Positions 21,873 to 50,999 are shown, counted from the stretch's first letter. The stretch: 64,000 nt of DNA from Leptonemataceae bacterium (GCA_965227295.1 OZ245742.1:5874551-5938550); one strand, 5' to 3'. A program made the numbers and translations. Notes: a model not told the origin generated them from the sequence alone.

Positions 21873-23118
21873 ATCTCCGGTCTACAATCCACACAGGCCC
21901 GCGAGCGCGCGCGCCGAGGTTCGGTAGCCTCGGCGCGCGCGTTCGCGGGGCGGACCGTGTCAGACTCGCAGCGGGGCGGCGAAATCGCGCGCGTTCTCGG
22001 GAGCCCCGCCCGTGAGACTCACAGCCGCGGCCCTCTTTCGCCCCCCTGCCGGACGCCCGCTGCGAAAACAAGATTCAATCGGCGATTTCCTCAGCTGAAT
22101 CTGCTCTATTATACTGCGCTAGCGCAGGATGTTCTGGGCCGGGCGTATCCGAAGTTCTGTCCGCATTGTGATGTTGAAATGCACACGCCTGTGGCCGGGC
22201 GCGAGACCGCGGTGCGTTGCGAAACCTGTCACTACATGGGCTCGCGCACGGCGGGCACCCCGCTGGATCACTTAAAGTTACCTCTCTGGACGTTTAGCTA
22301 TGTGCTTGGCGAGGCCGTGCAGACGTTCCCGCAGATGATCTCCGCGGCGCAGATTCAACGGCGGCTCGGATGTTCGAAACAGGCTTCGCTGAATCTCAAG
22401 CGGCGCCTGCAATTGTTCCTCACGGACCTCGTGCCGGCCGTCCGCGAACTGGTGAAGCGCGATCTTGAAGAGGCGTTTTCTGACCTGAAATTGCCGGAAA
22501 ATCAAGACGTTTCGAAGTTTGTCGCGAATAAGCCCGTGGTGCACAGCGACACCCTCGCCTTGTTCTCGGCAACGCAGCGCAGTAACGGCGGTCGCGCAAG
22601 ATGGAAACATACCGGACAGACCGCAAGCATCTATCTTTCGGACAAAGTCGCGGAGCAACGTGGCAAAGTCCAGATCGGAACGCTCGCGCATACCGTTGCG
22701 ATTATGAACGGGCCGGTGCTACTTACGTCCGTTCGCGATCAAACACAGAAGAGTCTTGAACCTTCTTTCAACTTCTTGCCGCGCCTGACGCCGATCATGA
22801 CGGACGAAGGCACGCCGTGGCTGTCGCGTTACTTTCCGAATCATCGCGCCGTAAATCACAGCGCCCGCGCGAAGGACAAACAGCGCAGCAAGTGGGCGCG
22901 GGATCGCTGGAGCCGCAACGGCGTCCACAATCAGGTCGCCGAAGGCAACCAGCGAATCGTTAAGATGAGTTTCCTCGCAGCTTACGGATACTTCGATCCG
23001 AAGTACTCGCAGTTGTATCTCAATGAATACTCCGCGCTCAAGGCCCTGAAGCTCCACGGCCTCGATAGTCTGCTTTCTCTATCAAATCCGACCGGTGTGG
23101 GGAATGTAGACCACAGAT
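21873..23118 (+). mobile_element. 1,246-bp IS1595-like module, copy 1
   Basis: Left end ATCTCCGGTCTACAATCCACAC; right end GTGTGGGGAATGTAGACCACAGAT (imperfect IR). Both ends are fixed to the base by where the copies diverge. Confidence 0.9.
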
Positions 23119-23741
23119 ATAGCGCCCTGCCCTCCGGGCTTCCCGTCGGCACGGGCCTCAGCATATTTCATCGCAAAGTGCAGGAGAATCTGTATATCCC
23201 ACCGCAATTGCACGATCGCAAGGGCCTCGACTATAGCGACTCGCGGCGGCAGATTCGCGGAAATCTCAAGCTGATGTTGGACGAACCGGACCTGTTTGCC
23301 GCCAAACAGGCCCATGTAGATTACCTGAATTCGTTTCAAGGCCTGCCGCCGTTTCGAAAGCAGAACGAAAAGAAATACGCCGCGCAAGCGTCGGCGCTCT
23401 GGAACGCGCTATCGCGACACGACGCGAAGCTATCCGCCGACGTCGCGCGCTCCGTGCGCGTCAATCATCGCATGGTATTAAGGATGATTCGACTGTGGAC
23501 GAAGCTCGGCCTCGTCGAGGCGCGTGAGATTCGCGGCGAGAAGGATCGCCGTAAACAGTTCTGGGTGTCGCGGCGCGTGTCGCTTCTGCCAGCGCTGCTG
23601 TATACCTGGGATCTCGACGGATTCCGCAATCAAACCGAGGCAGGCGTGCCCGTGGACCGCACGAAGAAAACCCGGCGCGGTAAGCACGGGATAACCGGCA
23701 AAGAACGTTCTAAATTTATTCAGGAGATGTATGATGGGTAA
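21957..23741 (+). CDS. IS1595-family DDE transposase with C-terminal winged-helix extension (start uncertain)
   Basis: CPHC..CETC Zn ribbon, HTH (ISAAQIQRRLG), VHSD, IMTDEG..H.AVNHS, HNQVAEG, KY..LYLNEY; the frame reads through the right IR for about 207 more residues. Confidence 0.88.
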   Translation: MSDSQRGGEIARVLGSPARETHSRGPLSPPCRTPAAKTRFNRRFPQLNLLYYTALAQDVLGRAYPKFCPHCDVEMHTPVAGRETAVRCETCHYMGSRTAGTPLDHLKLPLWTFSYVLGEAVQTFPQMISAAQIQRRLGCSKQASLNLKRRLQLFLTDLVPAVRELVKRDLEEAFSDLKLPENQDVSKFVANKPVVHSDTLALFSATQRSNGGRARWKHTGQTASIYLSDKVAEQRGKVQIGTLAHTVAIMNGPVLLTSVRDQTQKSLEPSFNFLPRLTPIMTDEGTPWLSRYFPNHRAVNHSARAKDKQRSKWARDRWSRNGVHNQVAEGNQRIVKMSFLAAYGYFDPKYSQLYLNEYSALKALKLHGLDSLLSLSNPTGVGNVDHRYSALPSGLPVGTGLSIFHRKVQENLYIPPQLHDRKGLDYSDSRRQIRGNLKLMLDEPDLFAAKQAHVDYLNSFQGLPPFRKQNEKKYAAQASALWNALSRHDAKLSADVARSVRVNHRMVLRMIRLWTKLGLVEAREIRGEKDRRKQFWVSRRVSLLPALLYTWDLDGFRNQTEAGVPVDRTKKTRRGKHGITGKERSKFIQEMYDG

Positions 23742-24060
23742 AGTATCGAAGAAGAAAGCCAGTAAAAAAGCGAAGGAGGAACCGCTGAAGTTCTTCGCAT
23801 CGCACTTTTGGGACCTCATGAAGTCTCAGGACTACAAGTGCGCACTCACCGGGCGTGAGTTGACACCGGACAACACCGAAGTCGAGCTGCGCGTGCCGTT
23901 CAAGAGCGTGGGCCGGACGGAGTTCTCGAATCACTACATCGTCGTGCGACAGTTGGCATACACGGCACGGCATGTGAGCGAAGACGAGATCGTCGAGCTG
24001 GCGGCCGACATCATCCGGCATCGCGGCAAGGAGTTCGGCTATGCGCTCCGCAAAGCGTGA
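23731..24060 (+). CDS. Degenerate HNH-like small protein, overlapping the transposase stop
   Basis: QDYKCALTGREL...ELRVPFKSVG....SN resembles the HNH scaffold without the catalytic His. Confidence 0.6.
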   Translation: MMGKVSKKKASKKAKEEPLKFFASHFWDLMKSQDYKCALTGRELTPDNTEVELRVPFKSVGRTEFSNHYIVVRQLAYTARHVSEDEIVELAADIIRHRGKEFGYALRKA

Positions 24061-24697
24061 AGACCTGTTCCCGGCGTGGGGCGTCGAGGCGGCGCTCTCG
24101 CGCTTAAGAGGCCGGCAGAAGAAGTTTGCTGCGTCGCCGATGGAACGCAAGCACGTCGCGCGTGACAAACGCTCGTGGAGCTATGCCTGCGTCTCGGCCG
24201 TGAACAAGATGCGCTATCGGCACCGCGCCGTCTTTCAGGAATCGCGCGAGCCGGATGCGTGGTCGTGGGTGATTGCCGTGCAGAAAAAGAAGCTCGTGCG
24301 GAAGGTTGACCCGGTCGCGGCGTGGCGGGATGCAGAGTATCGGATTCTGGAACGATACTACGGCCGGCTGCGCGAACCTCAATCCAAGCAGGATCGCGAT
24401 CGCTGGCGGTATGTGATTATTCGGCAGCGGTCGTACTTGCGGCGACTACAGGGGCGAGCAAAATCCGGTCCGCCTTCAAACGACTGGGCCAGAGTTCTTA
24501 AAAAAATGGCCCGGATCTCTGCGACACCATCGGAACATAGCAGTGGCCGTGGTTCCTGGAACTGGCGAACGACTGTGGCAGCCCAACGAGAGAAGCTACG
24601 GAACGCCCGCAGGCAGACGGGATGGATGAAGCTTGAAAGCCGACTCCAGTTCAATCCCGCAGCTCGACCATATCATATTTCTGAACCTGTCCACTAA
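24041..24697 (+). CDS. Basic Trp/Arg-rich hypothetical protein with internal pseudo-repeats
   Basis: 218-aa ORF overlapping the previous gene; recurring Trp-initiated basic helices. Confidence 0.55.
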   Translation: MRSAKREDLFPAWGVEAALSRLRGRQKKFAASPMERKHVARDKRSWSYACVSAVNKMRYRHRAVFQESREPDAWSWVIAVQKKKLVRKVDPVAAWRDAEYRILERYYGRLREPQSKQDRDRWRYVIIRQRSYLRRLQGRAKSGPPSNDWARVLKKMARISATPSEHSSGRGSWNWRTTVAAQREKLRNARRQTGWMKLESRLQFNPAARPYHISEPVH

Positions 24698-25218: not shown

Positions 25219-27276
25219 TTAATCATCGGTCTCGTCGCGCGAAAGATCCACGCTGCGCTTAAGCAACTGCGCGTTCACCGCGACGATCACGGTGCTGAGA
25301 CTCATAAACACCGCGCCCACCGCCGGACTCAGCATGATCCCCAGCGGCGCGAGCACACCTGCCGCGAGGGGAATGGCAACGACGTTGTAGGCCGTCGCCC
25401 AGATTAGATTCTGAATCATCTTGCGATGCGTCGCACGACCGAAGAGCACCAGGTTGCTGATGTCTTTGGGATTGCTGTGCACGAGCACGATGTCCGCCGT
25501 CTCCGCGGCGACGTCGGTGCCGGAGCCGACGGCAATGCCCACGTCCGCCTGGGCCAGGGCCGGCGCGTCGTTGACGCCGTCACCGGTCATGGCGACGAAC
25601 TCGCCGTCGCCTTGCAGTTCTTTAACGATGTCCTGTTTCTCGTGAGGCAGCACGCCCGCATAAAACCCGTTCAGGCCCAGCTCGTCGTGGACGCTCTTCG
25701 CGACGGTCTCATTGTCGCCGGTGGCCATCATCGTTTTGATGCCGGTGTCGTGCAAAATGCGAATCGCCTCGGGAGACTCGGGGCGTATGGAGTCCGCCAG
25801 GCCGACAAAACCCTTGAGTTCTCCGTCCACGACCAGAAAGACCACCGTCTCCGCGCCGGACGCGGCGGCCGAATCGGGAATCGTTATGCCGTTTTCCTTT
25901 AAGAAGCCCGGGCTGACCACCTTCACCTCGCGGGAATCCACGGACGCCTGCACACCCTTGCCGGTGATCGATTGAAAGCCTGACGCCTCCGGGACCGACA
26001 GCTCGCGCTTTTCACAGGCTTGAACGATGGCCTGCGCAATAGGATGCTCCGAATTTTTTTCGAGGGCCCCCGCAAAGCGCAGCACGTCATCCTCCGAAAA
26101 CGAGTCCGACACGCTCACGACCCGCTGCACGCCGAATTCGCCGGTGGTCAGGGTGCCGGTCTTGTCGAAGACGATCGTAGAAATTTTGCGCGCGCTTTCG
26201 AAGGCGGTCCGATTGCGAATCAGCAGGCCGTTTTGTGCGGAGATGGCCGTCGAAATCGCGGCCACCAGGGGAATCGCCAGACCGAGGGCGTGCGGACAGG
26301 AAATCACCATCACGGTCACCATGCGTTCCAGAGCGAAGACGAACTCGTAGCCGAGATAGAGCCAGACCGCTAAGGTCAGCGCGCCGGCGGTTAAGGCGAC
26401 GAAGGTCAGCCAGCGCGCGGCCCGGTCGGCCAGGCGCTGGGTGCGGGACTTCGTTTGCTGGGCCTCTTCGACCAGGCGAATCACTTTAGAAAGATACGAG
26501 TCCTCGCCGGTCTTGTTGACGCGAATGCGCAGCGAGCCCTCACCGTTGACGGAGCCGCCGATCACTTCGTCGCCCGCGGACTTGCGCACCGGCTCCGACT
26601 CGCCGGTGAGCATGGATTCATTGAGATAGCTGTTACCGTCTTCGATGGTGCCGTCGGTGGGAACCTTTTCCCCGGGCTTGATCAGCAACAGATCGCCGGA
26701 CTGTACGTCCTCCAGCGCCACGTCGTTCACGTCGCCGTCCTCGTCGATGCGATGCGCTTCGTTGGGCATCATCTCCACGAGCAGTTCCAGGGCGCGGGAC
26801 GCACCGAGCACCGAGCGCATCTCGATCCAGTGGCCGAGCAGCATGATGTCGATCAGCGTCGCCAGCTCCCAGAAGAACATCTTGCCGGACAGGCCGAAGA
26901 CCACCGCCGAACTGTAAGCGTAGGCCACGAAGATGGCCAGGCCGATTAGAGTCATCATGCCCGGGTTGGCCCGGCGCACCTCATCGAACGTGCCGCGCAG
27001 AAACGGCCAACCGCCGTAGAAAAAGATCATCGACGACAGCCCGAACAGAACGTAGCGGCTCCCTGGAAACTCCAGGGAGAAACCGAGAAACGACTGGATC
27101 ATCGGCGAAAGAACGAGGACCGGCACGGTCAGGACGGCCGATACCGCCAGGCGCTTCTTGAAGTCCCGGATCATTTGCCGGTGATGATCGCCGTGATTGT
27201 GACCGCCGTGGCCGTCGTGATTACCGTGGTCGTGATTGTGTTCGGCGTGTTTTTCGTGGTCTTCGTGATGTTTCAT
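25219..27276 (-). CDS. copB: Copper-translocating P1B-3 ATPase (CopB type)
   Basis: His-rich N-terminus, TGES, CPHALG, DKTGT, SEHP, GDGVNDAP, YN, MSLST. Confidence 0.93.
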   Translation of the reverse strand: MKHHEDHEKHAEHNHDHGNHDGHGGHNHGDHHRQMIRDFKKRLAVSAVLTVPVLVLSPMIQSFLGFSLEFPGSRYVLFGLSSMIFFYGGWPFLRGTFDEVRRANPGMMTLIGLAIFVAYAYSSAVVFGLSGKMFFWELATLIDIMLLGHWIEMRSVLGASRALELLVEMMPNEAHRIDEDGDVNDVALEDVQSGDLLLIKPGEKVPTDGTIEDGNSYLNESMLTGESEPVRKSAGDEVIGGSVNGEGSLRIRVNKTGEDSYLSKVIRLVEEAQQTKSRTQRLADRAARWLTFVALTAGALTLAVWLYLGYEFVFALERMVTVMVISCPHALGLAIPLVAAISTAISAQNGLLIRNRTAFESARKISTIVFDKTGTLTTGEFGVQRVVSVSDSFSEDDVLRFAGALEKNSEHPIAQAIVQACEKRELSVPEASGFQSITGKGVQASVDSREVKVVSPGFLKENGITIPDSAAASGAETVVFLVVDGELKGFVGLADSIRPESPEAIRILHDTGIKTMMATGDNETVAKSVHDELGLNGFYAGVLPHEKQDIVKELQGDGEFVAMTGDGVNDAPALAQADVGIAVGSGTDVAAETADIVLVHSNPKDISNLVLFGRATHRKMIQNLIWATAYNVVAIPLAAGVLAPLGIMLSPAVGAVFMSLSTVIVAVNAQLLKRSVDLSRDETDD

Positions 27277-27306
27277 AGATTCCTCCGATGTACCCGGGTG
27301 CCTTAT

Positions 27307-27597
27307 TCAGGGACGCCGGGCCGTCGCCTCGCGCAGCGAAAAGTTGTAAATCCCGGCGATGCACGCACCACAGAGATACGCCAGCACGAAGCTCTGGAAA
27401 AAACCCAGGCCGGCCTCCCACCAGGGCACGTCCATGCGAATCACGCCGCTGACGTCCAGGCCGTGCAACAGGCTGTTGAAAAAGAGAATCGTCCCTTCGC
27501 GTCCCACGCTCATCATCAGAATGATGCAGCCGGCGTACAGCAGCGCCGCCGTGACGCCCCAGGCGATACCGAACTTAAGTACGTTTATGCGAATCAT
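27307..27597 (-). CDS. Small two-TM membrane protein (DUF5676-like)
   Basis: FFNSLLHGLD between two TM helices; copper-operon context. Confidence 0.65.
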   Translation of the reverse strand: MIRINVLKFGIAWGVTAALLYAGCIILMMSVGREGTILFFNSLLHGLDVSGVIRMDVPWWEAGLGFFQSFVLAYLCGACIAGIYNFSLREATARRP

Positions 27598-27799
27598 GCG
27601 AACCTCCCCGGTGAGAATGACCTTCGTGGCCGTCTCCGCCGTGCATGCCGCTCATAAGAAAAAAATGCGCGGCGAAACAAATCATCAAAAAGAAGAACAG
27701 TGACCACGAGTCGCCGGGCAAAAAGGCCGGTGCGAAAAATATCAACAGCAGCGGCAGCACGCAGATCAAAAGCATCCATATCATGTGAAATCTCATCAT
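27575..27799 (-). CDS. Small His/Met/Cys membrane protein (DUF2933-like)
   Basis: HMIWMLLICVLPLL...C..H..M.GMH plus His tail; GGAGG RBS before 27799. Confidence 0.65.
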   Translation of the reverse strand: MMRFHMIWMLLICVLPLLLIFFAPAFLPGDSWSLFFFLMICFAAHFFLMSGMHGGDGHEGHSHRGGSHDSHKRT

Positions 27800-27857
27800 C
27801 AAACCTCCGAAACCAGAACAGCTCCCCGCCGCTTTTTCCGGGACGGGGAGCTTCGTT

Positions 27858-28400
27858 TTACATTTGAAACTCGGCTTCGTGAACGTGCTTCTTTCCACCG
27901 TAGGTGAACTCGGCCTTCACTTTGTAAGTTCCGGAACCCTGCATGGAAAAACCGATGCCGTGGTGGTGCATGCCGCCGCCGGCCATCACGTGGCCCTCAC
28001 CGTCGGCCAGGACCTTGCCGTCCGGCCCGGTGACCGTGATCTTGAGGCCCTTGGCGTCCTTGATGACCTTCTTCGTATCGAGTTTCATCAGCGTCAGGCT
28101 GAGGTGATGCTGACCGGTGTCGTGCATACCGTGCATGTCCACGTTCATCATCTTCGCCATATCCGCGTGGCCTTCGGCGGTCATGAGGTCGAAGGCGACC
28201 TGAACGCCGTCGTGTTTGACGACCTTCGTCATGTTTTTTCCCGAGTGCATGCCGGGATTATGGCCGTCCATCATATCGCCGGAGTGATGGTCACTCATCG
28301 CACCGCCGTCATGGTGATCCCCCGGCTCGCCGCCGCAGGCAACGCCCAATAAGGCGCCCAAGACGAGGACCGGAATCAATTTCAATAAACTCATAAACAT
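27858..28400 (-). CDS. Met/His-rich periplasmic lipoprotein, probably Cu/Ag-binding
   Basis: AAGGAG RBS, lipobox VAC, many M/H clusters, Ig-like C-terminus. Confidence 0.75.
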   Translation of the reverse strand: MFMSLLKLIPVLVLGALLGVACGGEPGDHHDGGAMSDHHSGDMMDGHNPGMHSGKNMTKVVKHDGVQVAFDLMTAEGHADMAKMMNVDMHGMHDTGQHHLSLTLMKLDTKKVIKDAKGLKITVTGPDGKVLADGEGHVMAGGGMHHHGIGFSMQGSGTYKVKAEFTYGGKKHVHEAEFQM

Positions 28401-28435
28401 CTCCTTATATTAAGTTAAATAAAGACTGGCGCCCT

Positions 28436-29053
28436 TCAATGGTCTCCGGTTTCCAGAAATTCTCCCCGCGGGCCGACGCCGTGCAGGTGCGTGAGTTCGG
28501 CCCCGAAGTGCCCCGCCGCGGAGACCAGGACCGCGGCAGCCAGCATCGTAGCGGCGGCCACGAATTCCAGCCAGCGGCGACGCAGCCCAAGGCCGGCGAG
28601 TTGCAAAGCAAGCGCCGCGGCGGCCGTGTAGATCGTGGCGTAGGCGAAAAAATCGTGGTTGGCGAGGACCGCCCGGGCTTCCGGAGTAAGACCGGTCGTG
28701 TGCGGGTGCACGAAGTAGGCCGCAACCACGCCGCCGATCAGTCCGACGGCGCCCACGGCGATACCCGTCCGGATCAGCGTGTCGTTTCGGAAGATTAAAC
28801 CGACCGGATACAGAATCGCCGCGAGCAACAACAGGACGATCGGGAAGTGAACGACCAAAGGATGCAGCGTCGGAAAGGCCGCGAGAGGCGGCGCGACCGC
28901 TTCCAGAAGTCCGGCCTCGGGAGTGGATTCCGCGGCACTCTCCCCGGATGCGTGGTCCCCGGGCCCGTGGGCATGCAATGGCAGCGCCGCCAGATAGATG
29001 GCCAACCCCAGGGCTAATATTTTCTGAATGATATTTAAGACCCTTGCTTTCAT
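28436..29053 (-). CDS. DUF2231-like membrane protein
   Basis: LHPLVVHFPI and GH.GAEL...HGVG. Confidence 0.75.
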   Translation of the reverse strand: MKARVLNIIQKILALGLAIYLAALPLHAHGPGDHASGESAAESTPEAGLLEAVAPPLAAFPTLHPLVVHFPIVLLLLAAILYPVGLIFRNDTLIRTGIAVGAVGLIGGVVAAYFVHPHTTGLTPEARAVLANHDFFAYATIYTAAAALALQLAGLGLRRRWLEFVAAATMLAAAVLVSAAGHFGAELTHLHGVGPRGEFLETGDH

Positions 29054-30318
29054 TAGGAGCTCCCCCGGACGACCGCGGCCAGAAGCAACCCCGCGGCGAG
29101 CCAGGCCGCGCAGAGATAAACCACGATTCGTTTCAAGCTTACGCCCGCGTCGCCGCCGTGGTCGTGATCATGACCGCCCGCGCTCTGCTCCCGGCGCGCC
29201 CGACGATAACGATACGCGAGCCAGGCCATTCCGAGGCTTACCAGAACGAAGCCGAGGTTTAGATAGAACGTGTAGTCGATCTTAATGCGCGTCACTTCCT
29301 CGACGACCCGGCGGCTCTCCGGCGTGATCCCGAACCAGGCGAAAGCGCCGTTGAGAATCAGGGCGGTGGATACCATGCTGATATACATAATCAGCGCAAT
29401 ATAGAGCGCGATCCTGGTGCCGTAGTACTTGCGATTGACCATGACCAGAGGCGGCACGATCAAATCCGAATAGATGAACGCCATAATGCCCGCGAAAAGC
29501 ACGCCGTTGGCGTTCAGAACCGTGGCGAGGGGAATATTACCCATAGAACCGATGAATGTGGCCGCGGCGACAAAGGGACCGACGAGGGCGTTCTCGACGG
29601 CGATCAACCACGCCGGTAACGTCTCCGTGTACCCGGTTAAGAAGATCGCCTCCCAGAACGACTGCGGGACCAGCGTCGCGATGATGCCGGCGATGGTGAA
29701 GCCGATGAGGATCTCTTCCCAGACCATGCCCCACTCCGCGAAAAAATTCCGCCCGACGCGATTCCAGCCGTCGGCGCTACGAATGCGTTCGCGCCACGAA
29801 AAATCTTCGGTGGCTTCGGTGGCGTGCTTCTCGACGCGACGCCGGGCCGCCTCGGCCCATTCGCGGGGCAACGTCCCACGCATGAGCACGCTGCTGATCG
29901 CAATCAGGACTATGCCGCCGACGAGTTCAGCCATGAGGAACTCAAAGCCGAGAAAGATATAAATCAAAATGCCCAGCTCGATGACGAGGTTCGTCGAGGC
30001 GAACATAAAGGCGACCGTCGCAATAAAATGCGCCCCCTTGGCGACCAGGGTCCGGGCCGCCGCCAGGGCCGCGAAAGAACACGACGACGACAGCGCTCCG
30101 AAGGCCGTGGCGATGCCGATGCTGCGCGGCCCGGCCTCGCCCAGATTCTCCGCCAGGCGCCGACGCGGTACGAAGGCCTGGATCATCGCGCTGATCGTGT
30201 AGCCGAGGACGAAGGCCCAGCCGGCCTTCCAGAAAAACCCCAGCGACGCGTACGCGGAATCGCTGATAGCCGGAATCATCGATACGATAGTTTCCATAAA
30301 ATTATCTCCACTGAACAA
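29053..30318 (-). CDS. Predicted permease (DUF318/ArsP family)
   Basis: SSCSFAALA, ASTNLVIELG, duplicated multi-TM architecture. Confidence 0.8.
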   Translation of the reverse strand: MFSGDNFMETIVSMIPAISDSAYASLGFFWKAGWAFVLGYTISAMIQAFVPRRRLAENLGEAGPRSIGIATAFGALSSSCSFAALAAARTLVAKGAHFIATVAFMFASTNLVIELGILIYIFLGFEFLMAELVGGIVLIAISSVLMRGTLPREWAEAARRRVEKHATEATEDFSWRERIRSADGWNRVGRNFFAEWGMVWEEILIGFTIAGIIATLVPQSFWEAIFLTGYTETLPAWLIAVENALVGPFVAAATFIGSMGNIPLATVLNANGVLFAGIMAFIYSDLIVPPLVMVNRKYYGTRIALYIALIMYISMVSTALILNGAFAWFGITPESRRVVEEVTRIKIDYTFYLNLGFVLVSLGMAWLAYRYRRARREQSAGGHDHDHGGDAGVSLKRIVVYLCAAWLAAGLLLAAVVRGSS

Positions 30319-30321
30319 GAA

Positions 30322-37610: not shown

Positions 37611-37615
37611 AATTT

Positions 37616-38763: not shown

Positions 38764-38772
38764 AACAGGGTT

Positions 38773-39799: not shown

Positions 39800-40100
39800 G
39801 GGCAAACATCAGATGAGGAACACTTAGAGATCCGGAGCGCCTGGCGTCGCCGGATTCAATGAGCTTGCCCGGGAGAAATCCGGCCGCTTTTCCGGGACGT
39901 GGATTCCAGCAATCGAAGACGTCGGTGCTAACTAATTTCGGCCGAATCCTAACCCCCGCCGCTCCAGCTCGTATTGGTTTTTCCAGGCAATCACGGGAAG
40001 TCGAAGTTCACAGCCAGCGCCGAGATTCCGCGCCGCGTTTCGTCGGCAACGCGTCTCTGCTTATCGCATGCTGCGCCTGGGAACCGCCGTATACAAATAT

Positions 40101-40141
40101 CCCATGCAGGCGAAAACCCACCGGGTCTTCGCCTGCATGGG
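40101..40141. terminator. Strong hairpin downstream of the czc/CDF genes
   Basis: CCCATGCAGGCGAA...TTCGCCTGCATGGG. Confidence 0.65.
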
Positions 40142-40242
40142 CGACAACGTTATCGCTCCTCTTCCCAGCCGTGAGCCTGCTGCGTGCTATGCGGTCGCGG
40201 CAATGTAACACCTGACAGGCCTCTATCCCTTCCTGCCCACCC

Positions 40243-41127: not shown

Positions 41128-41146
41128 CAGCCGCCCCCAATTAAGT

Positions 41147-41953: not shown

Positions 41954-42326
41954 AGGAGTCAACTCCTGCCTGCTCAAGAACGGCGACGAGATCCGCTTCG
42001 ATTTTCATATGTTGTAGCGCAGGCACATTCGCCCCGCCCGTGTTCCCGGTCGGATAATTGTTCACAAAGGACATCGCTCCGCCGACCAACAAGCGCGGGA
42101 TTTGCCCGATCACTTCTTTCGCGTTTCGATTGCGCAGACCGAAAACCAGCATTCGCCAGTGCACATAAGTGTGCTGCCAGGGATAGGCCTGCCCGATGAT
42201 ATGCGCTCGTTCGAGGTGACGCCACGCGGCGGGCGAATCGCCGGCCGCAAGCTGCTTGCGATACTCCTCAAGTTCGCTCTGAAAATAAGGCCGCAGGCCG
42301 GCCGGCATTCTTGTATTGAATCTCAT
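41946..42326 (-). CDS. DUF3703-like protein
   Basis: AWRHLERAHIIGQ, H..VHW.ML, PTGNTGGANV. Confidence 0.8.
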   Translation of the reverse strand: MRFNTRMPAGLRPYFQSELEEYRKQLAAGDSPAAWRHLERAHIIGQAYPWQHTYVHWRMLVFGLRNRNAKEVIGQIPRLLVGGAMSFVNNYPTGNTGGANVPALQHMKIEADLVAVLEQAGVDSYD

Positions 42327-42345
42327 ACACTTCTCCTTTACGCAG

Positions 42346-45300
42346 TTATTCTACATGGCTTTGCGGATCGCCGTCCCGATGCAGCCATGAGTAGGCCAGC
42401 GGAAGTAATGCGAGCGTTGCCACGGTGGCCGTAAAGATCCCACCGACGACGACTGTCGCGAGCGGGCGCTGGACCTCGGCCCCCATTCCCGTCGCCAGCA
42501 TCATCGGGAAAAAGCCGAGGATGTCCGTAAACGCCGTCATCAACACCGCTCGCAAGCGCAGTGCGGCTCCGCGTCGAATCAAAGCGTTACCATCACTTTC
42601 TCCGCCGGCACGCAATTCATTGTAGAAGTTCACAAGGACGACCCCGTTCAGAACAGCAATCCCCGACAGAGCAATCAGACCGACGCCGGCGGAAATGCTG
42701 AACGGTAGTCCCATCAGCTGCAGGCTAACGGCGCCTCCGGCCAGAGCGAAGGGCACCAGCGCGAAGATCAACACGGTCTGTTTTACGCTACGGAAGGCCG
42801 AAAAAATCATAAACGCGACAATCAATAAAGCCAGCGGTGCGACAATCAACAGGCGACTGCGCGCCTGCTCTAGATTGCGAAAGTTTCCGCCCCATTCCAG
42901 AAAGATTCCTTCCGGCAACCGCACCTTCGTTTCGATCGCACGCTGTGCGTCCTCGACGACGCTGGCCGTATCTCTGCCGCGCGGGTTTATCAACACGGCG
43001 GTGCGGCGCCGGGCGGACTCACGTTTAATCATGTCGAAGGCGTCGACGAATTCGATGCGTGCCAGAGAATGTAGCGGCGCCGTAAGGTTGTCCGCCACGC
43101 CGACCGGCAGATTGTAGATCGTCTCGAAGGAGCGCCGGGCATCGCCGTCCAGACGCAGCACGACGGGAAAACGTCGTACGCCGCGATAGAGATAGCCGAC
43201 CTCGGTCCCACCCAGAGCCAGTTGCACCGTATCCAGAACTTCGTGCGCCGGGACGCCGAATTGACGCAGGCGCTGTAGGTCCGGAGTTACGCTGAGAATC
43301 GGAGACTTGCCCTGAAGTTCCGCTTCGACGTCGCCCGCGCCCGGAACGGAGGAAATCGCCGCGACGAGTTGCTCGCTGACCGATTGCAGTTCGTCGAGAT
43401 CTTCGCCGTAGACCTTGAGCGCGACGTCGGCCCGCGCGCCCTCCATTAATTCGTTGAAGCGCAGCTGAATGGGCTGACTCATCAGAATGCGCTGGCCGGG
43501 GATTTCCGCTTTCAGGCGCGCGGCCAGTTCTTCGCGTAGTTCGTCCGGCGTTCGGGGACGACCCGTATCCGGCACGACCGTCCAGTCCTCCGGAGCCTTG
43601 AGCATTACGATCGTATCGGCGGTGTTCACGCCCATTGGGTCCGTCGCGATTTCCGCGGTACCGATTCGCGAGAATACCCGGTGAACCTCAGGAAACTCTT
43701 TGATCAAATTCTGGGAAATCCTTTCCAGTTCGATCGAACGATCGATGCCGACCGTCACCGGGCGTACAAACTGCACGGCGATAGAACCTTCGTAAAGCCG
43801 CGGAATAAATTCGCTGCCGGCGCGCCAGAGCAGTAAGGCCCCGAGACCCGGTACGATCAGCGACGAGGCGAGAATTGGTCCGCGATAGCGGATCAGGAAA
43901 GTGAGCAAACGCTGATAGAGGGCTTCCAGCCGCTGCATCAACCAGTGCGGGCGGGCGCGCCGCCGGCCTGACAGGAGCGCCCCGGCGAGAGCCGGAACCA
44001 GCGTGAACGATAGCACGAAGGCGCAAAACAGTGCGAATACGAAAGCGATCGCCATAGGCCGGAACATTTTGCCTTCGATGCCGGTCAACGTCAGAATCGG
44101 AATGAATACAATCACGATAATCAACTGACCGAAACCGGCGGCGTTTCGAATCTCCACGGCCGCGTCGGCGACGACTTCGCGAACTTCCGGGCGGCTCAGG
44201 GTTCGGCCGAGCTCCTCTCCGCGTGCTTCCACCCGCTGCATACAGTTGTCGATAACGATCACCGCTCCGTCGATGATGATGCCGAAATCCAGAGCGCCGA
44301 GTGACATCAGGTTGGCCGAATAGCCCGCCGCATCCATCAACGCCAGAGTACCCAGCATAGACAGCGGAATTACAAAGGCGCTGATCAACGCGGCGCGAAA
44401 ATTACCGGTCAGCACGAACAACACCACGATCACCAGCGCGGCGCCGAATATAAGATTTTCCCGCACGGTGGAGATGGTCGCGTCGACCAGCTCGGAACGA
44501 TCATAAAGAATTTCAAGTTCCGCCCATTCCGGCAGATCGACCGCTATCGCTTCCAGCCGTGCGGCGGCGTCGGCGGCGACAGCGCGACTGTTCTCTCCAA
44601 GCAGCATGAAGACGGTGCCAAGCACGCCTTCCTGTCCATCGATCACCGCCGCCCCCGTGCGCAGCTCGCGGCCCGGCCGCACAACGGCGACATCACCGAC
44701 CGTGACCACCGTGAGATCCGGCAGGGTGGCCACGGGCAGCGCCCGAATCTGATCCAATGAGCGAAAAACACCGTCGGCCTGCACCAGAAATTGTTCGGCA
44801 GTTTGCTGGACGTAAGCTCCGCCGGTGTTCTTGTTGCTCGCCTTGAGTGCCGCAGCGAATTCGTCGATGTGCAGACCGAAACGCGCCAGACGCGCCGGGG
44901 ACGGCTGCACATGATATTCTTCTGGATAACCGCCGATCGTATTTACCTCAGCGACGCCCCGCGTCTGAAGTAGCCGCGGCTTAATGTCCCATTCTTGCAG
45001 TGTGCGCAGGTCCATTAATTGCCGCAGACGTTGATCGGAATCCTCGGCGGGTTCTTTCGCGCGCACGGTATAATGGAGGATTTCGCCCAATCCCGTCGAG
45101 ATCGGGCCGAGGCGCGGCTGCACGCCCTCGATCAATTCCACGGACTGGAGTTGTTCGGAGATCAATTGTCGCGCCCGATACAGATCTGTGCCTTCTTCGA
45201 ACTCCACGGTAACCTGAGAAAGGCCGTAGCGCGTGATTGAACGAACGCCGGCCACGCGCGGAATCGTGCGCATCGCGTTTTCGATCGGATAGGTCACATT

Positions 45301-45537
45301 CATTTCAGCGGTCTCCGGCGTGAGCGCCGGCACCGCCGTGTTGACCTGCACCTGCACATTGGTAATATCCGGCACGGCGTCGATGGGAATGGAATAGAAC
45401 GCGGCGACGCCGGCCAGAATCAGGCACAACGTTCCAACGTATACGAACGCCGGAGTGTAGACAGATCGACGAATCATCGTGTCGAGAAAATTTCCGGCCG
45501 ACCCGGCGCCGGGAGTAGATGGGGATGATGGAGACAT
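42346..45537 (-). CDS. czcA: CzcA-type heavy-metal RND efflux pump
   Basis: DAVPDITNVQVQVNT, LGPISTGLGEI, LGALDFGIIIDGAV, GAEVQRPLATVV. Confidence 0.92.
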   Translation of the reverse strand: MSPSSPSTPGAGSAGNFLDTMIRRSVYTPAFVYVGTLCLILAGVAAFYSIPIDAVPDITNVQVQVNTAVPALTPETAEMNVTYPIENAMRTIPRVAGVRSITRYGLSQVTVEFEEGTDLYRARQLISEQLQSVELIEGVQPRLGPISTGLGEILHYTVRAKEPAEDSDQRLRQLMDLRTLQEWDIKPRLLQTRGVAEVNTIGGYPEEYHVQPSPARLARFGLHIDEFAAALKASNKNTGGAYVQQTAEQFLVQADGVFRSLDQIRALPVATLPDLTVVTVGDVAVVRPGRELRTGAAVIDGQEGVLGTVFMLLGENSRAVAADAAARLEAIAVDLPEWAELEILYDRSELVDATISTVRENLIFGAALVIVVLFVLTGNFRAALISAFVIPLSMLGTLALMDAAGYSANLMSLGALDFGIIIDGAVIVIDNCMQRVEARGEELGRTLSRPEVREVVADAAVEIRNAAGFGQLIIVIVFIPILTLTGIEGKMFRPMAIAFVFALFCAFVLSFTLVPALAGALLSGRRRARPHWLMQRLEALYQRLLTFLIRYRGPILASSLIVPGLGALLLWRAGSEFIPRLYEGSIAVQFVRPVTVGIDRSIELERISQNLIKEFPEVHRVFSRIGTAEIATDPMGVNTADTIVMLKAPEDWTVVPDTGRPRTPDELREELAARLKAEIPGQRILMSQPIQLRFNELMEGARADVALKVYGEDLDELQSVSEQLVAAISSVPGAGDVEAELQGKSPILSVTPDLQRLRQFGVPAHEVLDTVQLALGGTEVGYLYRGVRRFPVVLRLDGDARRSFETIYNLPVGVADNLTAPLHSLARIEFVDAFDMIKRESARRRTAVLINPRGRDTASVVEDAQRAIETKVRLPEGIFLEWGGNFRNLEQARSRLLIVAPLALLIVAFMIFSAFRSVKQTVLIFALVPFALAGGAVSLQLMGLPFSISAGVGLIALSGIAVLNGVVLVNFYNELRAGGESDGNALIRRGAALRLRAVLMTAFTDILGFFPMMLATGMGAEVQRPLATVVVGGIFTATVATLALLPLAYSWLHRDGDPQSHVE

Positions 45538-45575
45538 GATATACCTCAGTCTTTCTAACTTTCCTTAGAGGGAGA

Positions 45576-46184
45576 TTAGTGTCCGTGACCGGAGCCGGTG
45601 GCGCCGAACGCAGTCAGATAGGCCAGGTGCAGCAGCGCCGCCCCGGAATGAACGAGTTCCGCTGTGGCCGGCGGCAGGCCGGGTCGCAGGCGTATGCGCC
45701 GTGCGCTGCCGTCACTCCCCGACACGGAAACTTCGAATTGCCGTATACGATTGCGAGAGCGCAGATACACGAAAATCCGGCGTTCCGAAAAAACCAGAGA
45801 CTTCTCCGGCACGAGGAATTCCTCGCCACTGACTGCATACTTCTGTAGCGGAGCGAAACCGAGGCGCAGACGGCCGATAGCCGCCGGTGCGAGCTCGATA
45901 CCTTCGACTTCGTCCGCGAACACCACGGCCATTTCGGGGCCGGCTGTCATGGCCTCGCCATGTTCGCCATGTTCGCCATGTTCGCCATGTTCGCCATGTT
46001 CGCCATGTTCGCCATGTTCGCCATGTTCGCCATGTTCGCCGTGCTCGCCGTGCTCGCCGTGCTCGCCGTGCTCGCCGTGTTCGCCGTGTTCGCCGTGTTC
46101 GCCGTGCTCGCCGTGCTCGCCGCCGCATGCGGCCAGAGCGCTACAGAGCAAAAGCGTCAAAACAACCACTTTAGAATATTCCAT
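45576..46184 (-). CDS. Short adaptor-position lipoprotein with a (GEH)18 tract
   Basis: Lipobox LAAC; lies between czcC and czcA; ATG at 46184 overlaps the TolC stop. Confidence 0.75.
45960..46121 (-). repeat. 18 x 9-bp coding tandem repeat (Gly-Glu-His)
   Basis: Plus strand: 9x ATGTTCGCC, 4x GTGCTCGCC, 3x GTGTTCGCC, 2x GTGCTCGCC. Confidence 0.95.
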
Positions 46185-47490
46185 CGCCTTCGACCTCCGA
46201 TAAGAGTCGTCCGTCGATAACGTAAATCGACAGCAAAGCCAGTAGCGCGGCATCCTCACGTTCGTGATACTCATGTACGTATTCGATCATGCCGCGATGA
46301 AACTCGATCACCGTAGCCGCCGAAACTCGCCCGCGGGCTATGGCGGCACGCACCTGCCTGTGTTGGATTTCGAGGGCCGCAAACGACAGGCTGCGCTGCA
46401 GGGCGCGGCGCGCACCGGTATACTCGCGGAGCAAACGGTCTCGCTCCAACTGGAGGCGATCCTGAACGGACGCCGCGCGGGCCTGCTCCGCGGCAACGGC
46501 AGCACGGGCCGCGTCCCGGCCGCCTTCGTTGGTATGGTAAAGCGGCAGTGTCATGCGAAAGCTGAGTCCCAGTTCCGCCTCGGAAGACGAAGTCGAGCCG
46601 CCGAAGATGCCTCCCGACGGTATCCGACCGCGCCGGTACTCCAGAGCCGGGCCGATGCTGAGGTTCGGATACGCTTCCGCATCTTCTTGTTGCATCGCTG
46701 CTCGCGCGCGCGCAACTCGCTCGCGGGCGAGCCGCAATTCGGCCGCCTTGTCTTCTGTCGGCGGCTCCTGTAGCGTCGCGGCCACCGGCCAGCGCGGTTC
46801 GGGTATGCTTGCGGCGACCTGTGCGAAATCCGTGGCGGGAAGGCCGGTGGCGTAGCGCAATTCAATGACGAGTCGGTCTCGCTCCGCGTTAAGATGATCG
46901 ATGCGCATACGAACCCGGGCGAGAGCTACTTCGTAGCTTGCGCGACTCGCCTGCTGTTCGCCGCTCAACGCAGGTCGACGGCTGTACTTCGATACGGCGT
47001 TACCAAAGGCACGCTCCGCTTCTCGTAGATGACCGATCTCGTCCGCGAGATGCCGGAGACTATGAAGCCGTAGAGCGCTCTCGATGACGATCTCCATGCG
47101 ACGCAGCTCCAGGCGGCTGCGGGCCAGAGCAAGGTTCTGCTCCGCCACATCCATGCGGGCCGCACGTTTACCTGCCGTCTCAAACGTATGTTCAAATGAA
47201 GCTTCGGCCGTAAACGAATCCGGGCCGCCCAGCACACGCGAACCCAGTTCCGGGTTCGGATTCTGTTTCGCACGATCGACTTCGGCGGCGTACCGCTTCA
47301 ATTCGACCGTCGCCGCCTGCAATTCGGGGTTGTGTTTCATTGCGCAACGCAGCACTTCGTTCGCGGTGCTTGCTCGACATTGCGTAGCATTTGTCTTTAC
47401 CATATCGTCCGCTCGCAAGATTTCGGGTGCGGCGCTGAACGCGGCCCAGAATACGGCGGGGACAACAAACGCGTTCCAACGCATTCGCAT
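46171..47490 (-). CDS. czcC: CzcC/TolC-family outer membrane factor
   Basis: Signal peptide, NPEL, PNPEL, ET.GKR.AR, YPNLSIG, LPLY. Confidence 0.82.
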
Positions 47491-48338: not shown

Positions 48339-48770
48339 ATGATTGGCATTCAGAGAATCATCTTGAGCCACGAGGACCTGGCAGCTCTGCATCGCCACGA
48401 GCCCATCCGCGTGGAGCACGTAGAGTATGCACCGTTGGTGATTGAATTCCTGGGCAAAGGCCCCACGGATCGTTTTGCCATCGGTGTTTCGCAGTTCGTT
48501 CCGTACGGCGACAGCGGTCGCTTGCTCTGCGATCGTGAAAAGGGGTTCGAAATCTCGGCGAACGACGAGTGGCTGCTGTTAACTTTCGAGCCAAACCACC
48601 GGCGAACTCAAGGAAGTCTATACACCCGTACGGCTTCCGAGGTCGTCGCGATTGAGTTCCCTATTAAAGAGGGACCGCAAGTTATTTGTGGAGCTTCAGC
48701 AAGTCGCCTACGAGTGGGAGTAGGAAATCCGGCGCGCCGACTACCCCGGAGCGCTGAAAAAAGCCTGTAG
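48339..48770 (+). pseudogene. Possible degraded DUF6908-like plasmid/ICE protein
   Basis: IRVE..EY.PLVIE.LG.GP...I.VS....G.L..D.E..FE resembles DUF6908 from memory; the C-terminus appears to shift frame (ELQQVAYEWE*). Confidence 0.35.
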
Positions 48771-49029
48771 TACCCGCTGTTCAATGATCTCGACAAACAG
48801 GAGGCAGAGGCATGAGGGACCCGGGACGAAATCCTGTACAGTATCGCGTCGGCATCAGCGACGCGATGCGGAACGAAGTTCGAGCGCGTTTCGAAAACAC
48901 TTCGCAGCACATCCATAATGTCATCGCGGCCGATTTTCGCAATCGTCCCCCGCTCATCGACTTGATCGGAAAGCCGCCGGAGAGGGTCTCGGTTGATGAC
49001 GGCTGGGAAGAGGAGCGATAACGTTGTCG

Positions 49030-49070
49030 CCCATGCAGGCGAAGACCCGGTGGGTTTTCGCCTGCATGGG
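49030..49070. terminator. Strong hairpin after short ORF 48812-49021
   Basis: CCCATGCAGGCGAA...TTCGCCTGCATGGG; inverted twin at 40101-40141. Confidence 0.65.
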
Positions 49071-49371
49071 ATATTTGTATACGGCGGTTCCCAGGCGCAG
49101 CATGCGATAAGCAGAGACGCGTTGCCGACGAAACGCGGCGCGGAATCTCGGCGCTGGCTGTGAACTTCGACTTCCCGTGATTGCCTGGAAAAACCAATAC
49201 GAGCTGGAGCGGCGGGGGTTAGGATTCGGCCGAAATTAGTTAGCACCGACGTCTTCGATTGCTGGAATCCACGTCCCGGAAAAGCGGCCGGATTTCTCCC
49301 GGGCAAGCTCATTGAATCCGGCGACGCCAGGCGCTCCGGATCTCTAAGTGTTCCTCATCTGATGTTTGCCC

Positions 49372-49514
49372 TCTTTGCGTGATTCCTTTGCGTGATTCCT
49401 TTGCGTGATTCCTTTGCGTGATTCCTTTGCGTGATCGTCTTCCGTGATCGTCTTCCGTGATCGTCTTCCGTGATCGTCTTCCGTGATCGTCTTCCGTGAT
49501 CGTCTTCCGTGATC
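49372..49514 (+). repeat. 13-bp tandem array, 11 units: 5x YCTTTGCGTGATY plus 6x GTCTTCCGTGATC
   Basis: Counted directly. Confidence 0.95.
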
Positions 49515-49541
49515 GCGAGTTAGTCTCTTTTCATCTCAAGC

Positions 49542-50999
49542 TTGTACAGTTTTCTGATTCCGTCGTCCGTGGTTCCCTTGCCGCTGATGATGTTCTTTAC
49601 CTCTCTTCCGTTCTTGTGGCCACACGCCCCTCGCATTTGTGGCCACAAATCCACCGAGGCCGTTTTTGTGAATTTCTGCTGGACAGCTTCACTGTACGTC
49701 ATCGACCCTCGTTTCATGCCCGCAGCCGCTCGAAAATCCGCGCATATCTCCGGTCTACAATCCACACAGGCCCGCGAGCGCGCGCGCCGAGGTTCGGTAG
49801 CCTCGGCGCGCGCGTTCGCGGGGCGGACCGTGTCAGACTCGCAGCGGGGCGGCGAAATCGCGCGCGTTCTCGGGAGCCCCGCCCGTGAGACTCACAGCCG
49901 CGGCCCTCTTTCGCCCCCCTGCCGGACGCCCGCTGCGAAAACAAGATTCAATCGGCGATTTCCTCAGCTGAATCTGCTCTATTATACTGCGCTAGCGCAG
50001 GATGTTCTGGGCCGGGCGTATCCGAAGTTCTGTCCGCATTGTGATGTTGAAATGCACACGCCTGTGGCCGGGCGCGAGACCGCGGTGCGTTGCGAAACCT
50101 GTCACTACATGGGCTCGCGCACGGCGGGCACCCCGCTGGATCACTTAAAGTTACCTCTCTGGACGTTTAGCTATGTGCTTGGCGAGGCCGTGCAGACGTT
50201 CCCGCAGATGATCTCCGCGGCGCAGATTCAACGGCGGCTCGGATGTTCGAAACAGGCTTCGCTGAATCTCAAGCGGCGCCTGCAATTGTTCCTCACGGAC
50301 CTCGTGCCGGCCGTCCGCGAACTGGTGAAGCGCGATCTTGAAGAGGCGTTTTCTGACCTGAAATTGCCGGAAAATCAAGACGTTTCGAAGTTTGTCGCGA
50401 ATAAGCCCGTGGTGCACAGCGACACCCTCGCCTTGTTCTCGGCAACGCAGCGCAGTAACGGCGGTCGCGCAAGATGGAAACATACCGGACAGACCGCAAG
50501 CATCTATCTTTCGGACAAAGTCGCGGAGCAACGTGGCAAAGTCCAGATCGGAACGCTCGCGCATACCGTTGCGATTATGAACGGGCCGGTGCTACTTACG
50601 TCCGTTCGCGATCAAACACAGAAGAGTCTTGAACCTTCTTTCAACTTCTTGCCGCGCCTGACGCCGATCATGACGGACGAAGGCACGCCGTGGCTGTCGC
50701 GTTACTTTCCGAATCATCGCGCCGTAAATCACAGCGCCCGCGCGAAGGACAAACAGCGCAGCAAGTGGGCGCGGGATCGCTGGAGCCGCAACGGCGTCCA
50801 CAATCAGGTCGCCGAAGGCAACCAGCGAATCGTTAAGATGAGTTTCCTCGCAGCTTACGGATACTTCGATCCGAAGTACTCGCAGTTGTATCTCAATGAA
50901 TACTCCGCGCTCAAGGCCCTGAAGCTCCACGGCCTCGATAGTCTGCTTTCTCTATCAAATCCGACCGGTGTGGGGAATGTAGACCACAGATTGTTCTAG
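49542..50999 (+). CDS. IS1595-family transposase, C-terminally truncated form (in-frame ATG at 49716)
   Basis: Identical core to copy 1; the frame opens upstream of the left IR and ends DHRLF* at the TAG of the target duplication. Confidence 0.85.
   Translation: MYSFLIPSSVVPLPLMMFFTSLPFLWPHAPRICGHKSTEAVFVNFCWTASLYVIDPRFMPAAARKSAHISGLQSTQARERARRGSVASARAFAGRTVSDSQRGGEIARVLGSPARETHSRGPLSPPCRTPAAKTRFNRRFPQLNLLYYTALAQDVLGRAYPKFCPHCDVEMHTPVAGRETAVRCETCHYMGSRTAGTPLDHLKLPLWTFSYVLGEAVQTFPQMISAAQIQRRLGCSKQASLNLKRRLQLFLTDLVPAVRELVKRDLEEAFSDLKLPENQDVSKFVANKPVVHSDTLALFSATQRSNGGRARWKHTGQTASIYLSDKVAEQRGKVQIGTLAHTVAIMNGPVLLTSVRDQTQKSLEPSFNFLPRLTPIMTDEGTPWLSRYFPNHRAVNHSARAKDKQRSKWARDRWSRNGVHNQVAEGNQRIVKMSFLAAYGYFDPKYSQLYLNEYSALKALKLHGLDSLLSLSNPTGVGNVDHRLF
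49746..50991 (+). mobile_element. 1,246-bp IS1595-like module, copy 2
   Basis: Direct repeat of 21873-23118. Confidence 0.9.
50992..50999 (+). repeat. 8-bp target duplication TGTTCTAG, between module 2 and module 3
   Basis: ...CCACAGAT|TGTTCTAG|ATCTCCGG... Confidence 0.92.

Follow-up and report, generated by a model that had tools for sequence, protein, structure and literature searches.

Islands Bracketed by Twin Copies of an IS1595-Family Insertion Sequence and Stacked Behind a Host Gene in a Leptonemataceae Bacterium

Cargo DNA enclosed by direct repeats of an insertion sequence (IS) is familiar from IS1, Tn9 and the r-determinant, for which cointegrates and circles composed of one IS plus cargo are known. 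Siguier and colleagues are said to have related the IS1595 family to IS1 in 2009. Tn7 is inserted at attTn7 in a fixed orientation just 3' of a conserved gene, which is apparently recognised by its 3' coding end and remains undamaged, while tandem dimers of IS21 and IS30 display a junction in which the right inverted repeat (IRR) of one IS copy is followed, after a short spacer, by the left inverted repeat (IRL) of the next. The available part of PMC7986276 describes a single-IS mobile form and a cointegrate product for the translocatable units and pseudo-compound transposons of IS26, and also names circles of the IS21/IS30 type. For the IS1595 family itself (IS1016 group), the accessible part of PMC12561309 presents Tn7560, built on ISApl4, as a pseudo-compound transposon. 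Here, a 64,000-bp stretch of DNA from a Leptonemataceae bacterium (GCA_965227295.1, OZ245742.1:5874551-5938550), referred to as the window, was analyzed. It is the final 64 kb of one 5,938,550-bp contig, and it carries an island between two identical copies of a 1,246-bp IS1595-family module, repeated in tandem directly behind a host gene, in a pattern that may reflect an IS26-like cycle.

In the following, M denotes the 1,246-bp module, T the 8-mer beside it, Z and Y the DNA to the right and to the left of M, respectively, and G000 the window's own genome. It can be observed that T, TGTTCTAG, occurs as a duplicated 8-bp target at 21865-21872 and at 50992-50999, both on the plus strand. Inside these lie M1 (21873..23118, +) and M2 (49746..50991, +), which are 100% identical and 26,627 bp apart; the island between them begins in Z with ATAGCGCC and finishes in Y with CCGCGCAT. 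A previous sequence-only reading of the window had given this layout, the module coordinates, the spacing and the flanking 8-mers exactly. Both of its modules are present, but it missed a third M (M3, 51000-52245), again 100% identical, and the repeated unit that begins there. M3 abuts the second T, which is accordingly the spacer between M2 and M3. Positions 21865-34873 and 50992-64000 are the same over 13,009 bp (100%), up to the final base of the window. A full unit comprises 29,127 bp (the 8-bp T, M, 26,627 bp of cargo and M) and restarts at 50992, indicating that the sequence to the right of the second T is a second copy of the unit and not target DNA. This copy (51000..64000, +) consists of M3 and the same cargo, is 100% identical to 21873-34873, and is cut by the end of window and contig. 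Upstream of the first M is the host gene, encoding an MBOAT-family acyltransferase (20025..21872, +; Pfam MBOAT, E 5.9e-24). Its TAG stop codon is formed by the final three bases of T, and the frame ends, with APFIYFVF and the stop, exactly at the IS boundary.

The array resumes at the contig start. In the assembly the order is MBOAT gene, T, M, Z..Y, M, T, M, Z.. as far as the contig end, and from the contig start ..Y, M, T, M', Z'..Y', M', T, M'', T, M''', a mutated T, a foreign IS and a truncated M''''. The two M' copies are mutually 100% identical and 86.5% identical to M, compared with 77% for M'' and 85% for M'''. One and the same 8-mer stands between every pair of adjoining modules in the main array. 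Positions 1-8753 of the contig match window positions 41084-49435, save for seven added 13-bp repeat units, a difference which implies that the island is present at least twice. The contig breaks off within the second unit copy, in which no sequence corresponds to 34874-41083 (6.2 kb); this gap is more likely an unresolved repeat than a true loss on a circular contig. No clear microhomology is seen at the join between contig end (64000) and contig start (1). The proximal two units are identical and without foreign ISs; the distal unit and the solo copies hold foreign ISs, a frameshift, a truncation and a mutated spacer. A second, decayed array is located at 5.03 Mb behind another MBOAT-like gene, with AGTTTTAG as its spacer. 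M-family copies in G000 are confined to these two arrays behind MBOAT-type gene ends (20 matches by DNA search, 13 by protein search). Solo M copies with unrelated flanks, which the sequence-only reading had held against its own proposal, were absent from both genome-wide searches of G000. G000 contains at least 12 MBOAT-family paralogues, and arrays are found at only two of them. Four unrelated multi-copy IS elements lie in the older, distal part of the array (G000:C1:38221-39631, 40063-42428, 32338-34363 and 30167-31333), and one of the four, about 1.4 kb long, is inserted in CTAG of the last spacer, with duplication of CTAG.

The same design recurs in relatives. The window's own genome and 40 relatives were searched for the long form of the transposase, in which the frame continues from M into Z, and a match was obtained in 27 of the 41. 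In G001, a genome of the same genus, the array is situated behind the orthologous MBOAT gene end (again APFIYFVF and a stop) and contains four full units and a fifth M-Z as well as three solo M copies, with TGTTTTAG in all spacers; its flanking M copies do not differ inside any unit (100% identity) and share 78-83% identity from one unit to another. In the Leptospira genome G030 (GC 38%), two tandem units with islands of 40.7 and 30.4 kb follow the stop codon of a SpoIIE-type gene, their flanking M copies having 100% identity inside a unit and 85% across units. Units are thus placed head to tail in one orientation, one 8-bp spacer apart, directly after the stop codon of the host gene. Two Leptospira genomes, G025 and G050, display the empty site, in which the gene end is joined to the right-flank DNA of the G030 array and the 8-mer is present once, demonstrating that the G030 array is a true insertion with an 8-bp duplication. 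In 7 of the 13 Leptospira genomes having this SpoIIE-type gene end, M starts exactly 2 nt past the TAG. The 8-mers at those sites differ (TTGTAGTT, ..AT, ..AA, ..AG and CTTTAGAA), and the stop codon at MBOAT-type sites is TAG or TGA. The constant position despite differing 8-mers and stop codons suggests that the position is recognised, rather than the 8-mer; from the sites compared, the recognised feature is probably the 3' end of the host gene.

Modules were found at 47 contig loci, all in assemblies named Leptospira, Leptospirales, Spirochaetia or "bacterium", and their flanks were read by protein anchoring. Both flanks were readable for 23 module copies, of which 12 have T on the left and Z on the right, five have Y on the left and T on the right, and four are bordered by T on both sides; the remaining two are a copy with Y on the left and an unrelated right flank, and an ambiguous one (L041). 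M-8 bp-M junctions are also present in G001, in closed Leptospira genomes and at loci L048 and L051. L041, from a draft Leptospira noguchii assembly, was considered as a candidate for the single-module form Y-M-Z. Its left flank merely ends in GGGCGC and has no nucleotide similarity to the Y of G030, and it was not counted. At 3866-6657 it holds a single M with an intact long form and the two genes that follow it (o109 and o218, see below), with no partner M on the contig, and about 100 nt of its upstream flank belong to a short repeat that occurs more than 40 times across the genome. A distant subfamily, at 33-44% identity, occurs as two or three tandem modules about 1.2 kb apart in Leptospira noguchii, L. 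ainlahdjerensis, L. adleri and L. alexanderi (L053, L055, L058 and L065, respectively), and its o109 homologue keeps the catalytic His. Among 72,556 records of a plasmid collection, tblastn with a Leptospira long form as query detected a relative in one (78% query cover, 40% identity), and that record is a 393-kb replicon.

The two M copies that flank an island show 100% identity in 11 of 13 units, whereas copies from different units are 70-86% identical, that is, 14-30% different. No difference is found in 11,115 bp over nine pairs, and two further pairs agree throughout the 1,237 bp and 1,121 bp compared; by comparison, the inverted repeats within the same units show 100 differences in 11,759 bp. 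Identity within a unit combined with divergence between units fits the formation of each unit from a form that holds a single M. The two exceptional pairs, at 92.1% (G027) and 94.2% (G036), indicate that flanking copies drift when left alone, and one of these units is visibly decayed, with two TGA stops in its long form. The identity of the five complete solo M copies to any resident unit does not exceed 86.4%, as expected if solo copies are the remains of departed islands.

By its sequence characters, M is an IS1595-family insertion sequence. Its terminal inverted repeats are 22 bp long (IRL 21873-21894, IRR 23097-23118 in M1), and their pattern gives seven matches in the window compared with 0.01 expected. 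The Pfam model DDE_Tnp_IS1595 (PF12762) scores 31.5 bits against a gathering score of 27, for the long and short forms of the transposase alike, and the same family is precomputed for most of the transposase homologues. In an alignment of 18 transposase sequences D198, D283, E329 and K336 are invariant, as are C88 and C91 of the zinc ribbon (CxxC...CxxC), while C68 and C71 are kept in at least 90% of the sequences; the Pfam model Zn_Tnp_IS1595 gives no score at E<=1e-3 on the window transposase. Together with the 8-bp direct repeats that flank the units, the 22-bp repeats agree with the definition of the family, so that the IS1595-type module with an 8-bp duplication proposed in the sequence-only reading is borne out by the PF12762 match, the repeats and the empty sites. 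The family definition further places the transposase gene within the element, and here M departs from it, having no stop codon inside. No additional IRR was detected 3' of Z within three mismatches in the window, as a larger unit transposon would have.

The transposase frame leaves the IS on its right side, and its length depends on the neighbour of M. Followed by T, as at M2, the short-form frame ends with DHRLF and a stop at the TAG of T; followed by Z, it remains open for 207 more codons, a continuation that had already been noted after M1. The long-form open reading frame (ORF; 21957..23741, +) encodes 594 aa from a GTG codon, with a zinc ribbon, a DDE core and a C-terminal domain (CTD) past the IRR. 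The CTD (23119..23741, +; 207 aa) lies outside the IS and is helical plus a winged helix. Full-length matches in relatives are without a stop in 21 of 22 cases, the exception carrying two TGA codons. Among the 120 matches listed from the protein collection, at least about 30 homologues cover 85% or more of the 594-aa query, and the long-form homologues among them include Leptospira proteins at 43-46% identity, from genomes which also hold short forms of 417-424 aa. In the alignment, short forms end just past the NV(D/G) motif encoded by the IRR, and long forms go on in frame through a linker of variable length.

Ratios of nonsynonymous to synonymous substitution rates (dN/dS) were computed for the window unit against its sister unit, which is 86% identical to it. 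Values of 0.084 for the DDE body, 0.146 for the CTD extension, 0.091 for o109 and 0.25 for o218 were obtained, compared with 1.32 for the first 192 nt of M in the transposase frame and 0.88 for the frame upstream of the left repeat. By this measure the CTD extension is under purifying selection and not a chance read-through, and the neutral values on the left side indicate that the transposase gene crosses the right repeat but not the left one. The sequence-only reading had proposed one gene of 632 aa, from ATG 49716, spanning both inverted repeats. The frame before M2 is indeed open from TTG 49542, as it had stated, and the crossing of the right repeat stands, but the reading is too long at its start and the crossing of the left repeat is lost. 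Within the first 192 nt of M, just inside the IRL, a near-perfect 24-bp GC hairpin of 52 nt occupies 21898..21949 (+). On the identical M2 copy (49746-49850), the calculated stability is -68.7 kcal/mol over 105 nt (z -5.8; equalled by none of 200 shuffles), and the predicted hairpin probably insulates the transposase gene from outside transcription. An AlphaFold2 model of the CTD, with a predicted local distance difference test (pLDDT) score of 83, displays helices and a winged-helix core. Foldseek searches of the PDB returned only generic MarR/ArsR-type regulators for the CTD, none at E<=1e-3; Pfam HTH_27 matches at E 0.027, and Pfam and NCBIfam otherwise give only generic winged helices.

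Two genes follow the long form. The first, o109 (23731..24060, +), has a start that overlaps the transposase stop and encodes a small HNH-like protein. It reaches 0.96 to HNH clusters of the ESM Atlas, whereas HNH matches in the PDB are weak (E 0.07-0.7), and Pfam HNH_5 scores in 6 of 24 members, the window's own o109 having no Pfam match. Asn67 is invariant in the alignment; the catalytic His kept in the distant Leptospira subfamily is a Leu in the window's subfamily. The second, o218 (24041..24697, +), encodes a basic and conserved protein, all-helical and with Trp residues at regular intervals, the homologues of which come after o109 in 15 loci, Leptospira included. It has no match in Pfam, NCBIfam or the Atlas, and its AlphaFold2 model has a pLDDT of 59. 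The extension and the two downstream genes, which the sequence-only reading had expected in homologues, recur regularly, with an o109 homologue directly after the long form in 24 of the 24 loci aligned; the upstream repeats expected along with them are absent from the Leptospira stretch scanned.

These observations can be brought together in a cycle of cointegration and translocatable units, similar to that of IS26, acting on an IS1595 element, with position-specific targeting and a transposase that is full-length only beside cargo. We put the chance that this reading is correct at about even. The heritable mobile form would consist of the island and a single M, resembling a translocatable unit of IS26, and replicative transposition of M from this single-M form into a target would give a cointegrate, in which both M and the 8-bp target are doubled. 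The island would subsequently be freed when the twin M copies recombine with each other, leaving a solo M, which would account for the divergent solo copies in the arrays. The long-form enzyme would be made only where M abuts Z, and its winged-helix domain probably gives the choice of target. New insertions would adjoin the host gene, so that older units would be pushed outward and decay; that insertion always occurs beside the host gene is suggested by the order of decay along the array. In a bolder version, which we offer tentatively and hold to be less likely than the cycle itself, the units would be site-specific mobile islands of Leptospirales belonging to a class not recognised so far. 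Their transposase gene would be deliberately split by the right end of its own IS, the full-length, target-selecting enzyme and its two partner genes would be encoded solely at the junction of IS and island (present in the single-IS transfer form and at the left copy), each integration would make a truncated twin, and the islands would be stacked in chronological order behind the host stop codon, like cassettes at an attachment site.

Several points weigh against the IS26-like cycle. The flanking copies are non-identical in 2 of 13 units, and G027 has both frames open and a clean 8-bp duplication at 92.1% identity. In four of six units the inverted copy of the M head and Y is 99.5-100% identical to its partner, although cointegration cannot regenerate that copy; such near-identity suggests that gene conversion is active and could homogenise the flanking M copies too. 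In Logan contigs from two runs of one study, which neither show nor exclude a circle, no circular or single-M joint and no record bridging 48000-54000 was found, and unitigs cover M about twice as deeply as the island (696-700 compared with 311-348, and 52.6 compared with 22-23), as predicted by the integrated two-M form alone. With the island written as X, tandem identical units (T-M-X-M-T-M-X-M) need a step that increases copy number beyond simple excision and reinsertion. Several M-Z units, moreover, are without a right-hand M (unit 5 of G001, the 5.03-Mb array of G000, and L041), and the part of the CTD in targeting, probable as we hold it to be, is something that we infer. An alternative is an ordinary compound transposon, in which M-X-M moves whole by its outer IRL and IRR, by cut-and-paste or by copy-out/paste-in, gene conversion keeps the twins identical and the inner IRR is a tolerated relic. 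Each unit does have an IRL and an IRR at its outer ends, together with an 8-bp duplication, a second insertion of a whole unit would explain the tandem identical units simply, gene conversion evidently acts on the inverted head and Y repeats, and the G027 unit, with 92% flanking copies and both frames open, is in keeping with it. The inverse polymerase chain reaction (PCR) product reported for an IS of the IS1595 family, in the part of PMC12561309 that treats it, is compatible with the IRR-spacer-IRL junction. It should be noted, however, that identity of the flanking copies is bimodal, with 11 units at no difference and two at 6-8%, whereas the inverted repeats of the same units accumulated differences, and that every solo M copy is unlike those of the resident units. 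The right copy, furthermore, never decays in intact units, unlike in old Tn5 and Tn10. The compound transposon is regarded as possible but unlikely.

By another route, M alone would transpose and the island would enter or leave by RecA-dependent recombination between its single M and a resident solo M. The perfect 1.2-kb direct repeats are good substrates for RecA, a T-flanked solo M is present in every array, the flanking M copies are identical, and a DprA-like recombination-mediator gene lies in the Y backbone of the G001 units. This route, however, requires an identical solo M already at the site, and the five complete solos all differ from the resident units; how units would reach sites not occupied before, like the empty ones of G025 and G050, is left unexplained; and the DprA-like gene is absent from Leptospira units. 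It appears rather improbable. The larger episome of the sequence-only reading, taken as an autonomous, plasmid-like circle of 27.9 kb with the 13-bp repeats as iterons and M as its integration site, receives some encouragement from the tandem repeats beside the IRL, which exist in two inverted copies, and from the winged helix of the CTD, a fold shared with iteron-binding initiators. Pfam searches nevertheless found no gene for replication, partition or transfer/conjugation in the window unit, five G001 units and two Leptospira units, and the plasmid collection yielded the single relative mentioned above, which together make an autonomous episome unlikely. The repeats amount to 2.8 copies in one G001 unit scanned and are missing from the Leptospira stretch, and the depth values, in which M exceeds the island twofold and island DNA is not in surplus, point weakly in the same direction. 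We consider this reading highly improbable. Least credible is an assembly artefact, in which the tandem unit and the M-T-M junction result from misassembly of repeats at the contig end. The contig does end inside the second copy, and its start resumes 6.2 kb further along the island, but M-8 bp-M junctions are also seen in sequences assembled independently (G001, closed Leptospira genomes, L048 and L051), the seven extra 13-bp units of the contig-start copy demand at least two islands, and neither end of the contig touches the first full unit (21865-50999).

On the left of M2, Y is a conserved flank (48999..49745, +) that closes with CCGCGCAT, and its end, (G/C)(T/G)GCAT, is common to G001, a further metagenome-assembled genome and Leptospira. 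The tandem repeats and palindromes that had been reported before M2 were recovered, as 13-bp tandem repeats at 49373-49515 and a terminator-like palindrome at 49030-49070; a scan of Y gave no sigma-70-like promoter site. Upstream, a DUF6908-like ORF (48339..48770, +) belongs to the Y-side backbone in this genus, with a Pfam E of 0.0096 here and 1.1e-14 for the G001 homologue, and 52% identity to the sister unit by tblastn. Within the island, the first 217 bp of M are repeated as an inverted copy (38992..39208, -), with the IRL at 39187-39208, next to an inverted copy of Y (39209..40172, -) having its 13-bp repeats at 39682-39798. An equivalent inverted M head is present in all six units of G000 and G001 examined. 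A 278-bp segment with 49-nt inverted arms lies in the inverted Y at 39306-39583 and is collapsed to one arm in the direct Y, accounting for the 217-243-bp offset between the two copies of Y. The 13-bp array has about 11 units in Y and about nine in the inverted Y, and the contig-start copy (about 8381-8640) has seven more than the Y of the window; judging by these counts, the array appears to behave like a variable-number tandem repeat. In the G001 unit scanned 2.8 copies of repeats of this type were counted. On the Y side of the G001 units, DprA-like, DUF6908 and staphylococcal-nuclease-like genes occur in two copies arranged as a long inverted repeat, and Leptospira units are without these genes.

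The cargo of the window unit is divided into two compartments. Compartment A (25219..38781, -) encodes, by Pfam, a P-type ATPase, a DUF2231 protein, an ArsP-like permease, RND/MFP/OMF heavy-metal efflux, a MerC-like protein and a MerR regulator. Compartment B (40243..47490, -), by Pfam and NCBIfam, encodes two CDF transporters, a second RND pump, a 9-bp-repeat (collagen/His-Xaa-Ser-like) protein and an OMF. The cargo varies between units, with islands of 20-40 kb, and that of other units includes efflux genes, regulators and defence-like reverse transcriptase, HNH, GIY-YIG and AAA_15 genes. Between the genes for the RND pump and the OMF, the ORF at 45576-46274 (-) contains a 9-bp tandem repeat of about 18.7 copies (45955-46122) and has weak scores for Pfam Collagen and the NCBIfam His-Xaa-Ser repeat. 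Its product may be a repetitive, metal-binding periplasmic protein. A similar 9-bp array exists in a G001 unit (L022, 15994-16199). Outside the array, a short repeat at window 16339-16745, of about 150-350 bp, has many genomic copies at 78-95%; it resembles repetitive extragenic palindromes or miniature inverted-repeat transposable elements and is unrelated to the array.

If the IS26-like cycle is correct, gene movement by cointegrates and translocatable units, so far tied to IS26 and its kin, would extend to another IS family, to which would be added the stacking of islands at a specific position behind a host gene and a transposase length set by the neighbour of the IS, features not known for IS26. 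A rule would also be available for locating islands of 20-40 kb, with metal efflux, defence-like and regulatory genes, in Leptospira and related spirochaetes, pathogenic species included, where island genes are mostly annotated as hypothetical or "ISXO2-like". The units would furthermore offer a testable system for how a DDE transposase gains target specificity.

Among known systems, Tn7 shares the target logic and leaves the host gene intact. The duplication here is 8 bp and not 5 bp, however, and twin ends of IS size take the place of multi-site ends. Pfam detected no TnsB-type (rve), TnsC or TniQ protein in the backbone of the window, G001 or G030 units; the rve matches in G030 belong to unrelated IS3-type insertions within the cargo. 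Amplified repeats of the r-determinant share one IS and have a period of IS plus cargo, whereas here the period is two ISs, cargo and 8 bp. Unlike in the dimers of IS21 and IS30, the abutting copies derive from different units and are 14-30% apart, and the spacer is the full 8-bp target. No description of the present architecture was found in the full-text literature, subscription journals not being covered. The resemblance to Tn7560/ISApl4 lies in direct repeats of the IS1595 family around cargo, in 8-bp duplications and in an IRR-spacer-IRL product of inverse PCR like the M-T-M junction here, as given in the available part of PMC12561309. That part describes ISApl4 as an element of 712 bp with a self-contained gene of 654 bp and 39 scattered copies at A/T-rich sites, and describes for it, unlike for M, no site specificity, gene extension, accessory operon or stacked arrays (PMC12561309).

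The closest likeness is to IS26 and the IS6 family, in cargo between identical direct IS copies, an 8-bp duplication and arrays of units, as set out in the part of PMC7986276 available, and in the single-IS form and cointegrate proposed here. The new element class claimed in the sequence-only reading is consequently not wholly new, for IS26 units work in this way and a case from the IS1595 family is in print, according to the accessible parts of PMC7986276 and PMC12561309, respectively. The differences from IS26 are nevertheless considerable. The transposase is of the IS1595 type, a DDE enzyme with a zinc ribbon in which Pfam shows the IS1595 DDE domain only. Neighbouring units share no IS, each junction being IRR-8 bp-IRL with two different M copies. 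Insertion is specific in position and orientation, behind a host stop codon. The transposase gene runs into a conserved domain and a two-gene operon, to which IS26 has nothing comparable. Should the single-M intermediate and CTD-dependent targeting be confirmed, these features may justify a class of their own.

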